A DNA stretch of 62,317 bases, filler included, from Hausera hauseri (taxonomy: Eukaryota): the NCBI GenBank assembly GCA_046269625.1. It is 11 parts of 11 records of this genome, joined end to end, with 100 filler letters (N's around TTAATTAATTAA, not from the genome) between each part and the next. Parts side by side here need not be neighbours in the genome. Positions count along the whole stretch, not along the records: positions 1 to 5,951 come from JBJURY010164532.1; 10 more parts are not named here. One strand, written 5' to 3'. This document shows, piece after piece, positions 886-4,529 of this stretch. The number at the start of each line of letters is the position of its first letter. Within the stretch, counting starts at the first letter, position 1. The notes beneath the pieces were generated by a model that was not told the DNA's origin, made no database searches, and was given only the letters and a program-made list of their open reading frames with translations. Both the position numbers and the translations under genes were made by a program.

Positions 886-1004
886 AGGGAGAGGTGATAT
901 GCCCGGGGGCGTGTTGTGGGCAGCAACGAAAGGCGTTATCTGACCCACTGGTGCATGGTGGGCCGCGGGACCTCAGCCTCTCCGCGGCGGGTCCCAAATT
1001 TCGG

Positions 1005-2750
1005 GGTAAGAACAACAATGACATTTTTGTTCTTTGAATCGACTGAAGCAAATTCTCATTAAACTTACAAGTAGGAATACGTTTAATATCCAAAAACACT
1101 CGATACCCACGGAGTCGTAAATGTACCATTAATAGGCTGGCTGAGATACGTTACTCCATCGATATGAGATAAATACGTCTATATTCTTTATAATTGGTTT
1201 ATTGTACACAGTATCATCAGCATGATTAAAAACAAAATTATTAATTTGTACACTGGTGGATGACAATTGACATGGCAATTCTTTCATATAATCGACATAA
1301 TCTATTCGTTGAGTAGCAACAGCAACCTTAGAGTCCTTCGTAAACTTCACTTTACAATCTTCTGCTGCTTTTAGAATTCGCGCTCGATGGACAGAATTCG
1401 TTACACAGCAATCTTTGGCCAGTAAGTCATCAGTTATGTTCGAAACAAACTTTCGATCCACGCCCGCTTTGACAAATGAATATGTGTAATGACAGTAATC
1501 TGATCCAACATGCATTTTGAGCCAGTGACAAACATCTACTTTCCAAATAGAAACGGAATGTGAAGGGCTAAAAGGAATATTTTCATTGAAAATTTTTAAT
1601 ATTTGGCTGGCACATTGAGCAGCTATTCGAAAAGTATTAGAGGCGACTTTTCTGAGACAATCAATAGCTCCGATATCGCTAAATATGTTTTTCCTTGCCT
1701 ATGCTTGATGCGGGCTTCCATTACAAAATGAAATGAAGCCAATGAAACAGCTTTAATACTGTCCCTTTAAAAATTGGTAAAAGCCGCCTCAACCACTTGG
1801 ATGATTGACCTTGTAAATGCGACGGTTCAATTTCTGCGAAGTTATATGGCGAATGATTTTGTAAAAACGAAAAAACTAGTTCTAATGTTCCTGATGAATA
1901 AACCATATCAGCTAGTTCTCTATGGGCTGATAGGACTAAAATAGTCATACAGGCATAATACTTTATAACAACGTCTTCGTTAAGAGCTAACGGAAACAAC
2001 CAATCTGCAATTTTATAATGACCCATTGTCATCTGGGTGTCAAAATTTCTGAAAAGACCCAAGTTAACTAACGCAAATACAACGTGCCGAAGAGTTGCAT
2101 TGTCGGTCGACCTGCATGAATAGCTGAGACTTTTCTTCAGTGACACAACCTACGTTGCATCGCTGTTGCAGCACGGCACGTCCAGTCCGGATTTGTAAAG
2201 TTCCTCAAAGCTCGGCTCATTCCATGCATGAATATGCGCTTTCCATTTACATATAAGTCCGTTCCAACCACAACGACTCATCTTGAGGAATTTGCTTGGC
2301 GTATGTGGCTGAAATTGATGTCTATTTTGTTTCGATACATTATGAAAGTAATTCTTGTAACATTCCTTAGATTTTTCTTTATCAATGTCGGACTGTCGGC
2401 GTGCAAGGACATAAATGTTTTCTTCGATCTGTATAGACTTTTTGCTTTTCTTACATTTATCCGAATACTTCATTAAATCGATTTCTTTTTCGTCATTTAA
2501 AATAGACTGATTAGCCCAGCTGATGCTGTTTCTTCTGTTCATGCGCTCATTCACTGCAGAATTTCGATATTCGGATTGTAATCCTTGTGAAATTTCTTAG
2601 TCCTCCGAGATATATTACGAGTGCTGTTGCTTTGATCGATTAATTTATTCTGTTTCACATGCTTTTTTGGGTAGACTGTTTAATAGATTCTATCTTGTGC
2701 TCAAATGATGCTTTTTAACATAAGGATAGGATAACATTTTGTTTTCCACC
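1005..2750 (-). pseudogene. SARM1: SARM1 (ARM-SAM-TIR) intronless fragment, internally deleted and 3'-truncated
   Basis: LRHVVFALVNL, WLFPLALNED..IKYYACM, HLQGQSSKWLRRL, IFSDIGAI, SAM2 VHRARIL, TIR DVFISYRWS..VHLRLRGYRVFLDI..KFNENLLQSI; stops and frameshifts. The 5' boundary is uncertain. Confidence 0.9.
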
Positions 2751-2818
2751 ATTCCCTTAGAATTGTGACTCCTCACTCTACTTAAGAATAACAATGTTTT
2801 CTGGGGATTTTCCTTACG

Positions 2819-3433
2819 TCATCTCTGCATATTGTGAATGGAAACAAGAAAAATCTGAAAAATATCTCGAATTTTAAAGTTTAATTCATCAAATTTATCG
2901 TAACGACGCATGGTAAACTCGACAAGAGATGTTTTTAACTCAGCAATTTTAAATAGTAATTTTCCGACATCTTCGGCATTTAGTTTATTTTCCATATTCA
3001 TGCAATTAAATTCACCAACCTGTGATCTGCGTGTTGGCTACGGCATGCTCAGTCCGCCGAAAATGAGCACTTGGATGGTCGGTTGGTTTCTGAATCCACA
3101 AAATCAGAACGGCTGCGTACAGGAATGTGGCTGAGATTTCTGAGACTTCTGACACAAATTATTATTATTTGCTTGATGTTTGTCTCNNNNNNNNNNTCTC
3201 ATCCAGCATTTCTTTGTGGCAATAGAAAAAAATAAAAATGCACCATTGAATATCGAGTTGAATGAATCTGTTAATTCCTTGTTCGGTGTATTGTAGTTTC
3301 TGCAGCTTGTTTCAAAATCTTTAAGAACCAAAATACCATCGACGTCGGTGATACAAACCATGATATTTTTGAGAATAATATCGTCGACTTTAAAACTCTC
3401 AAGATTTGTTAGAAACTGAATAATATCCATCAT
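2819..3433 (-). other. Unassigned sense-oriented coding fragments within the A1 LTR cargo
   Basis: Met-initiated ORFs 2819-3001 and 3104-3433 with protein-like composition; family not recognised. Confidence 0.3.
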
Positions 3434-3944
3434 TTTAGATTGAATTATATTACGACCGATAAATCATAAAACTAGATCAGATCAAAATTATCCGTACAAC
3501 AAATACCAAAATGAAGATTGTGAAAATTTTCAATTTGAACAAAAATTTTTTAAAATGGCAGGTAGAAACTTTGTAACATCAAAATTCAAAACGCAATTTG
3601 TGTATTTATCTTTTTTTACCATATTCAAACAAATTTTATATTTTTTATGTTCAAAAAATTTTACTATGAAACGATACAAGTCAATCATCTGCAACATTTG
3701 AAATAATCAGTCTATAGACTTGAAAATAAATCAGAGATAGATTTCGTCATCTTGGCTTTTCTTTTCTTTACTGAGATTATCTTCTTCAGATGAAATATAT
3801 TCTTCCAATTGTAGCATAAGCGTTAGACTCGATTCATCTTTTGACAACTTCAAATCATTAGTGAAAGTCAAATATTTTCATCAAACTGTTTTTGATATTG
3901 TTTGAGTCTCTGTTTTGCACTGAATACTGTCTTTTTCTTGTAAT

Positions 3945-4379
3945 AGAGAAGTGTTCTTTAGCAACTTTCTCGCCACTTTCGTACGATACTTCTCATCGAC
4001 TGTCGAGATTATTCTTCTTACCGATCAACATTTTCTCAACATCAGCATTAGCGTGTTCAGCAATATTTTGCATCCATACATTGATGTTATTGAAAGAATT
4101 GGAATTTGTAACGTCGTATACCAGTAGACTTCCAGTTGCACCCCTGTGATGCGATGTAGTGATCGTTCTGAATCGTTCTTGGCCATCAGTATCCGAAACC
4201 TGCAATTTTATTTTCTTACCATCGATTTTTATGGTTTTAATTTTTAAATCAATACCAATAGTTGTGATAAATGACGGTGAAAATTGGTCATCTGAAAATC
4301 TGATTAAGAGACTAGTTTTTTCAACTCCTGAGTCTCCAATTAATAGTAATTTAAATAAATAGTTGTAATCCTTTGACAT
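3945..4379 (-). pseudogene. RAB8: Rab8/Rab10-family GTPase, intronless, 3'-truncated
   Basis: [45 protein letters not shown]1, G3 and G4 motifs damaged (GVEKT, SDTDGQ, KKNN); premature stop at 3993. Confidence 0.88.
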
Positions 4380-4529
4380 AAACTTCTGTCTTGATTTTTA
4401 TACAGATAGATAATTATATCGCTGAGACGAGAGATCGGGGACCACCTATGGGCCCGACGCGGCGGCAGTGAACGTCCGGCCGTATCCAACCAAATAGATC
4501 AGAGGGCGCCGGCCACTGTGGGCACCACA

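Follow-up and report, generated by a model that had tools for sequence, protein, structure and literature searches.

How pieces of several host genes came to lie inside a Gypsy retrotransposon, between one end of the element and what is left of its primer binding site (PBS), is the question raised by the first scaffold of a 62,317-nt window (the whole stretch of DNA analysed) from Hausera hauseri (GCA_046269625.1). The window is a series of small scaffolds chained via a 100-nt linker. It holds three copies of the element, each in another scaffold: copy 1 in scaffold 1 (1-5951), copy 2 at 13727-22206 (A3 of an earlier note on this DNA) and copy 3 at 26675-31060. The leader and gag regions of copies 2 and 3 are 77-78% identical to copy 1. 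On balance, the evidence leans toward copy 1 being a decayed CsRn1-like copy with spliced Rab8, SLBP, SARM1 and other pieces between its long terminal repeat (LTR) and a PBS remnant, gained by template jumping of the reverse transcriptase (RT). The matching layout, slightly favored as well, would be an LTR of ~100-167 bp, a variable mRNA cargo, the PBS remnant, gag-pol, the polypurine tract (PPT) and the second LTR.

Run X1 is the only run with matching DNA, in the form of contigs, and is probably the assembly's own sample, as four listed contigs are identical to the window. The listed contigs represent 8 of 1617 pieces, 6 of 253 loose-end places and 4 joints among 1611 contigs. The comparators are 167 loci, which contain 23 LTR pairs with a PBS.

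Host gene pieces in the three copies

The cargo of copy 1 is on the minus strand, and all of it is sense to the element and decayed. Nearest the left end is an intron-free Rab8 fragment (3960-4379), which extends from the ATG to about codon 140 and is disabled by a P-loop change and a stop. Rab8A is the best match (E 7e-53), and the ATG at 4379 is 53 nt past 4432, in agreement with the earlier note, which had placed it ~55 bp past the conserved LTR block. Coding-like pieces without assignment follow at 3197-3955. A resemblance of 3197-3430 to LAMTOR3 found no support from Pfam, PDB or a homologue search, and this candidate was rejected. After a 10-N scaffold gap with GAGA on either side (3187-3196) comes a coding-like piece at 2700-3186 that may be the N-terminal part of SLBP; an Atlas search with 2822-3037 gave no usable match. 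The SLBP fragment itself (2153-2596) is identified by PF15247 (E 2e-16), so that one of the coding pieces formerly listed as unassigned now has a name. The best named SLBP match is a trematode protein with 38% identity, which is a weak hint of the host only.

The last piece of the copy 1 cargo is a frameshifted SARM1 fragment (1008-2150, E 7e-28) with the ARM region, the second SAM and the start of the TIR. SARM1 and Rab8 had been described as intronless, 3'-truncated and sense; the identity of SARM1 and the sense orientation stand, and the SARM1 piece turns out to be 5'-cut too relative to human, starting near human residue 211. The first SAM is missing and the join falls between two similar motifs, a loss that would fit RT slippage or exon skipping. 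The gag region of copy 1 (1-750, minus strand) is cut by the window edge. No Rfam match above the gathering score was found in 700-4700.

The loss of an SLBP intron and the absence of inserts found in a SARM1 relative indicate that the host cargo is processed. At 2211/2212 an X1 contig carries an insertion of 38 letters; together with 2 letters that can be placed on either side, these make up a 40-nt GT-AG intron. The SLBP piece in the window is an exact exon-exon join at this point, with the 40-nt intron precisely absent. The host is an animal with short introns; the earlier note called its CSTF1 gene full of ~40-nt introns, and the two that were checked are GT-AG introns of 41 and 42 nt. P0001, a close SARM1 database protein, is identical to the ARM piece at 90 of 137 aligned residues. 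It has two intron-like inserts, one of 52 residues and one of roughly 15 residues, that are absent from the SARM1 cargo; the 52-residue insert is also missing from solved SARM1.

Many X1 contigs that are 80-95% alike align at 2979-3389 and 1061-1471, up to 9 per listed site. This suggests that the same host sequences were captured more than once or were amplified.

Host coding sequence is found directly upstream of the leader in 3/3 copies that have their 5' end in the window. On the minus strand of copy 2 the cargo comprises a Cullin-1-like fragment with stops (20880-21790), a DDX28-like DEAD-box helicase fragment (20150-20800) and the N-terminal Myb fragment of CDC5L (20022-20130), which runs into the PBS remnant TCGGCTACCCCG (20010-20021). 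Copy 3, also on the minus strand, has a UBR4-like coding stretch without intron candidates (29260-30883; match at 29369-30160, E 3.5e-4) upstream of a G-run and PBS remnant GAGGGGAATTCGGTCATCCC (29101-29120). All of the identified cargo pieces are sense (7/7), and no gene is common to two copies. The three cargo regions have no A or T run of at least 8, which means no poly(A) tail. Behind the cargo of copy 2 the gag-pol region is decayed and kept in its full extent (14450-20009, minus strand), with the leader, gag with a CHCC motif, protease (PR), RT, RNase H (RH) and integrase (IN); the leader-to-gag spacing is 327-337 nt in all three copies. Since each copy has a different cargo, capture at the PBS point is likely to be frequent in the family.

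The primer binding site remnant and the LTR ends

The family of copy 1 is, by its sequence features, a CsRn1-like Gypsy (Ty3/gypsy) family. A Trp-type PBS is present in 8 LTR pairs in 7 loci (of 23 pairs), and the LTRs of these pairs are 142-215 bp long and end directly before TGGTGACC. The motif ACCCCG is the core of the TGGTGACCYYG PBS in the 7 relatives. In an integrase tree that includes no named CsRn1 reference, the element is placed beside 7 Trp-PBS elements (branch 84/81; 97/95 with L118) and outside their own clade. The CsRn1 clade (CsRn1, PwRn1 and AgCR), as described in the accessible part of PMC2582038, shares with the present family the CHCC Gag signature (CX2HX9CX3C; matched exactly once, at 18840 in copy 2, where it contains a stop), the Pol order PR-RT-RH-IN (here read from the open reading frame (ORF) pieces of copy 2), a TGT LTR start and the ACCCCG core. 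In contrast to that clade, the PBS here is without TGG and kilobases of host mRNA separate it from the LTR. Directly after a 5' LTR no tRNA-Trp PBS (TGGTGA[G/C]CCCG) is found, the match being to the ACCCCG core at a site that is not LTR-adjacent. Because of the Trp-type PBS relatives, the integrase grouping and the CHCC Gag motif, ACCCCG is very likely to be the old PBS core.

The closest integrase among the 167 loci has ~40% identity over long matches, and a single-protein scan gave no close relative with flanks. A blastn search of the LTR block and leaders against the same loci gave only 3 matches (E 0.14-0.46), and a search of viral contigs for a 19-nt junction motif gave 0 matches. Loci L089-L118 (e.g. 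L090, L097 and L098) contain complete animal-type Gypsy elements with LTR pairs in contigs filed as bacterial bins, which points to eukaryote contamination of the bins.

The three junctions between cargo and leader fall within about 20 nt of one another, at the PBS remnant. In copy 1 the homology to SARM1 continues to V-V-L-T-P, and the Thr-Pro codons supply the PBS remnant ACCCCG (1002-1007, minus strand) at the edge of the GC-rich leader that is common to the three copies (880-1007, minus strand). The PBS-like nature claimed for this motif is upheld by the relatives, though TGG is absent. In copy 2 the homology to CDC5L continues to L-H-R, right before TCGG. In copy 3 the remnant is still preceded by a G-run and GGTC. 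The apparent junction microhomology of SARM1 and CDC5L is read from protein homology. Two of the junctions, in copy 1 and copy 2, break into the PBS remnant, TGG is present at the remnant in 0/3 copies, and CA stands directly before it in 0/3. X1 contigs have loose ends at 1007 (21 contigs, agreement 0.66) and at 1009 (36 contigs, agreement 0.55); for ~13 letters they resemble copy 3, after which they are mixed. A join of LTR block and leader is seen in 0/4 listed joints; contigs break in repeats. Many contigs have the altered PBS motif, with which the family therefore seems to have spread.

In Tf1-type elements, according to the accessible part of PMC7175516, the PBS can pair with about 11 nt of the element's own LTR. 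Here the longest perfect pairing between PBS and LTR is 5-6 nt (7-9 nt with G-U), which is no better than shuffles in 6/6 pairs. No tRNA gene was found in the window as a candidate primer source.

The left LTR end of copy 1 is at 4529, where TGTGGTGCC starts on the minus strand. The GC-rich LTR block with its TG start occupies 4430-4529 (minus strand). Positions 4432-4530 match 14334-14433, right after the G-rich PPT of copy 2 (14433-14440, minus strand), with 74% identity over 100 nt (E 2e-9). The loose ends of 59 X1 contigs fall at 4529 with an agreement of just 0.38, which is expected at an insertion boundary and indicates that the TG is a true element end. Outside it is an older Gypsy fragment with RT, RH and IN (4537-5951, plus strand), the target DNA that was split by the insertion. 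The LTR start and the opposite-strand RT/RH flank had both been proposed in the earlier note and are borne out. The GC content of the LTR block and leader is ~65%, vs ~36% around them.

A candidate full short LTR of 166 bp with TG...CA ends can be drawn in copy 1 (4364-4529, minus strand), with a boundary chosen by eye. The likeness to copy 2 is weak over its last ~60 nt, a stretch that also overlaps the start codon of Rab8. The 3' LTR of copy 2 is a 167-bp TG...CA candidate (14266-14432, minus strand), firm to ~14334 and with 14266 as a candidate end. Past the shared block the two copies are weakly alike for ~60 nt (3/2000 global and 14/2000 local shuffles), and both reach CA, at 166 bp in copy 1 and 167 bp in copy 2. 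This suggests that the LTR may have been an ordinary short one whose end resembled the Rab8 start, with the boundary picked post hoc. The LTR-block profile has a third, weak match (E 0.24) on the opposite strand at 23725-23792, just upstream of CSTF1.

The 3' flank of copy 2 consists of two consecutive ORF pieces (13727-14130, plus strand) that are collinear with an insert at 42760-43175 (E 4e-11 and 5e-9; z 6.4; same order) and are read as target DNA. These pieces are antisense to the element, unlike all of the cargo, and 14130-14330 is without a significant match (z 1.4). We take the pieces at both places to be the minor capsid and PX genes of an adintovirus or Polinton; they have no library hit.

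These ends and junctions bear on the earlier proposal of a 3.5-kb LTR with the cargo inside it, copied to both ends of the element. The cargo would then be U5: strong-stop DNA primed at or near the PBS remnant would hop across host mRNAs on its way to the 3' end of the element's RNA, and both LTRs would consist of block plus cargo, up to 3.5 kb. This origin is unlikely. It agrees with the order of LTR start, cargo and PBS remnant in copy 1, with the LTR block of copy 1 having no PBS after it and with the intact G-run in copy 3, and by definition everything that separates R from a working PBS is U5. The 4-9 contigs per listed cargo site, 80-95% alike, are also expected from a duplication to two ends, as they are from later amplification. 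However, strong-stop DNA primed at the PBS would leave the PBS whole, and in copies 1 and 2 it is cut by the junction. The missing TGG, the lack of a CA before the remnant for the integrase and the short LTRs of the relatives speak against it as well. A Cassandra-like arrangement, with host sequence in both LTRs, is also not what is seen in copy 2, where the post-PPT LTR is followed by the antisense, DNA-virus-like, non-host sequence (1/1, a small sample with no full-length copy). Of the earlier proposal, the LTR start, the processed sense-strand cargo and serial hopping of the RT over host mRNAs are supported, whereas a cargo within the LTR, duplicated at both ends, finds no support.

The LTR block (4430-4529 and 14334-14432) and the leaders (880-1012, 19890-20024 and 28978-29113) are ~55-60% alike in both inverted and direct orientation, centred on a shared CCATT-GG core. 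Inverted local alignments give z 2.9-5.2 in 5/6 pairs, vs at most 2.0 in the 23 comparator elements. The direct orientation gives z 2.8-3.5 in 3/6 pairs by local alignment and z 2.2-3.8 in 6/6 in a hand-set register. There is no G-U bias, and a profile search was not significant (E 6 and 10). The block and leader may be inverted arms of one LTR (TG...cargo...CA), a suggestive and ambiguous arrangement that serves as a lead only. The likeness could also come from an old duplication or from RNA pairing between the two ends.

Proposed template jumping and its alternatives

The RNA template of LTR elements normally ends at the PBS after R-U5 degradation. In the template-jump model, minus-strand synthesis would proceed via pol, gag and leader to the PBS region as to this normal template end. 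The RT would then switch to a host mRNA at a few shared bases, such as those seen at the SARM1 and CDC5L junctions. Further hops on co-packaged mRNAs would produce serial, truncated sense pieces, which is the anatomy observed. The last jump would be onto plus-strand strong-stop DNA, possibly aided by the likeness between the Rab8 start and the LTR end, and would produce the sharp TG end. Integration would place the cargo on the 5' side only with gag-pol retained; this agrees with the one testable 3' end (1/1), and one-sidedness may be the rule. A bolder version, which is possible and rather doubtful, is that a family with a broken LTR-PBS junction completes reverse transcription through host mRNAs, with nearly every new copy being a fresh multi-gene chimera at the same position.

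Several observations weigh against template jumping. Only one 3' end, that of copy 2, could be examined, and no copy has both of its ends in the window, so that there is no full-length element and no 4-bp target site duplication, a CsRn1 feature, to compare. The LTR is seen on the left only in copy 1, where its link to the leader crosses the gap, and on the right only in copy 2. Copies 2 and 3, whose scaffolds stop 2.2 and 1.95 kb upstream, show no LTR block ahead of their cargo. The likeness past the LTR block has a z of about 3.3 over 60 nt and is gone by 150 nt; the 166/167-bp end was picked by eye after looking, and CA occurs often in that stretch (7 and 9 times). The cullin fragment may still hold an intron-sized stretch near 21490-21530 which, if it is a retained intron, implies a pre-mRNA or genomic origin for that piece. 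Two X1 contigs that are ~88-90% alike cross the VLSAH/RELA site of SARM1 without an intron-sized gap; therefore, the parent may lack an intron there, or the cargo was amplified after capture or more processed copies exist. The sequence past the 57 loose ends at 1007 and 1009 could be ordinary flank. X1 contributes family-level information and not independent support. Finally, the model leaves minus-strand priming without TGG unexplained.

The 10-N gap at 3187-3196, given as a caveat in the earlier note, is real and is bridged by none of the listed X1 contigs, a further point against a continuous cargo. It is improbable, however, that the two halves are unlinked, that is, that LTR-Rab8 and SARM1-leader are real RT chimeras from different elements on either side of the gap, with the leader copies being products that have no 5' LTR and end in host mRNA. 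The unseen LTR block in copies 2 and 3 would fit such an origin, but the scaffolds of both end short of a 3.4-kb cargo. On the two sides of the gap the host coding sequence is sense and similarly decayed and comes in the order that template jumping would give, and the GAGA on either side suggests a small or overlapping join. A family that carries an integrase also needs two LTR ends.

There is little chance that the chimera arose at the DNA level, by insertion into or recombination with pseudogene clusters, the cargo of another transposon or host genes such as those for cullin and UBR4. The intron possibly kept in the cullin piece could be explained in this way, and the pieces of UBR4 and cullin might each represent a long genomic exon. 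Against it, the junction point and the polarity are the same in 3/3 copies, the element has lost its own LTR/PBS boundary at the junction and does not end at TG there, and there are the microhomology with the PBS remnant and the exact SLBP intron loss. An artefact of a fragmented short-read assembly, which small scaffolds, a repeat-rich region and a scaffold gap might invite, is highly improbable, given that X1 contigs are letter-for-letter identical to the window over 1861-2563 (including the SLBP/SARM1 junction), 2551-2905, 3262-3542 and 3832-4391, and that the cargo has its own stops and frameshifts and has lost an intron, which mis-assembled genomic DNA cannot give.

Known systems and other features of the window

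LTR-mediated retroposition in animals is known to give partial, sense, intron-free mRNA copies with microsimilarity at their junctions and multi-gene chimeras, according to the accessible part of Tan et al. 2016 (PMC5131818). The present cargo shares with those retrocopies the intron loss, the microsimilarity, the lack of poly(A) and the chimeras of two or more genes. In the cases described there the cargo replaces internal ORFs at scattered points, whereas here gag-pol is kept, a single point of ~20 nt is used and each copy has other genes. Maize Bs1, as far as it is covered in the available sections of PMC5131818 and PMC7264820, also carries several unlinked host genes (three transduced) in one LTR element; it is one fixed, inherited internal chimera, whereas the cargo here varies and is located on the 5' side of the remnant PBS. 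Ty1 retrosequences and Y' mobilisation in yeast likewise involve RT copies of co-packaged cellular RNA; the accessible part of PMC7175516 describes occasional or selected yeast events and no family-wide fixed site.

The non-autonomous elements Cassandra, Helenus and Ajax, in the portions of their descriptions that were available, have host-derived RNA sequence inside the LTR and are the nearest precedent for a cargo that forms U5. Their insert is one short, fixed small-RNA motif in a tiny element, in contrast to kilobases of variable mRNA. Crocodilian endogenous retroviruses with KIT-ligand or nectin3 (PMC4299795, accessible part) share the capture of host mRNA, in one case without loss of an element domain; there a single gene lies between pol and env or replaces env and is inherited in the lineage. 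Captured ORFs are mostly reported after pol or in place of coding sequence (PMC6431247 and PMC7264820, accessible parts), and extra ORFs upstream of gag are also noted in the sections available of PMC7264820. The parts available of PMC3726574, PMC4299795 and PMC12471100 describe no cargo between LTR and PBS. In a literature search, largely without subscription papers, no description of a variable mRNA cargo at the boundary of LTR and PBS came up.

In the known cases, gene capture by LTR elements is accidental and occasional; internal genes are replaced, and the capture is inherited afterwards. Here the three visible copies have different genes at one fixed point with gag-pol kept, and dozens of contigs diverge at that point. 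If the capture is habitual, the end-of-template step of reverse transcription would be a capture hot spot, and the family would be a large source of retrocopies in a lineage whose retrocopy maker is not known. It would then be a standing machine for exon shuffling across the whole family, and its copies a fossil record of transcription in the germline. The locus also raises the testable question of how an element without a tRNA-pairing TGG starts its DNA.

The window has a second Gypsy family at 6052-13626 (minus strand). Its PBS near 12530 is of the TGGCAGCGG type, and no LTR pair was found for it. A 199-aa ORF is located upstream of its PBS (12923-13519), and this family may also carry upstream cargo. 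Its gag N-terminus ends in ...PKLKGG and is reminiscent of a ubiquitin-like domain; neither Pfam nor PDB gave support.

The region 39462-54590, together with 13727-14130, presumably contains decayed adintovirus or Polinton-like genes (capsid, minor capsid, PX, protease and DNA polymerase), with no library hit for the pieces tested. The gap at 46429 was rejected as a control for linkage across gaps, as the protease label there got no support from searches. From their translations, we take 54542-55392 to be parvovirus-capsid-like, 56006-56539 to be an ORF like that of a G-protein-coupled receptor and 57282-58441 to be a piggyBac-like transposase fragment. A long imperfect inverted repeat at 24977-25399, centred near 25155 and upstream of CSTF1, has the look of a foldback element or of a miniature inverted-repeat transposable element.

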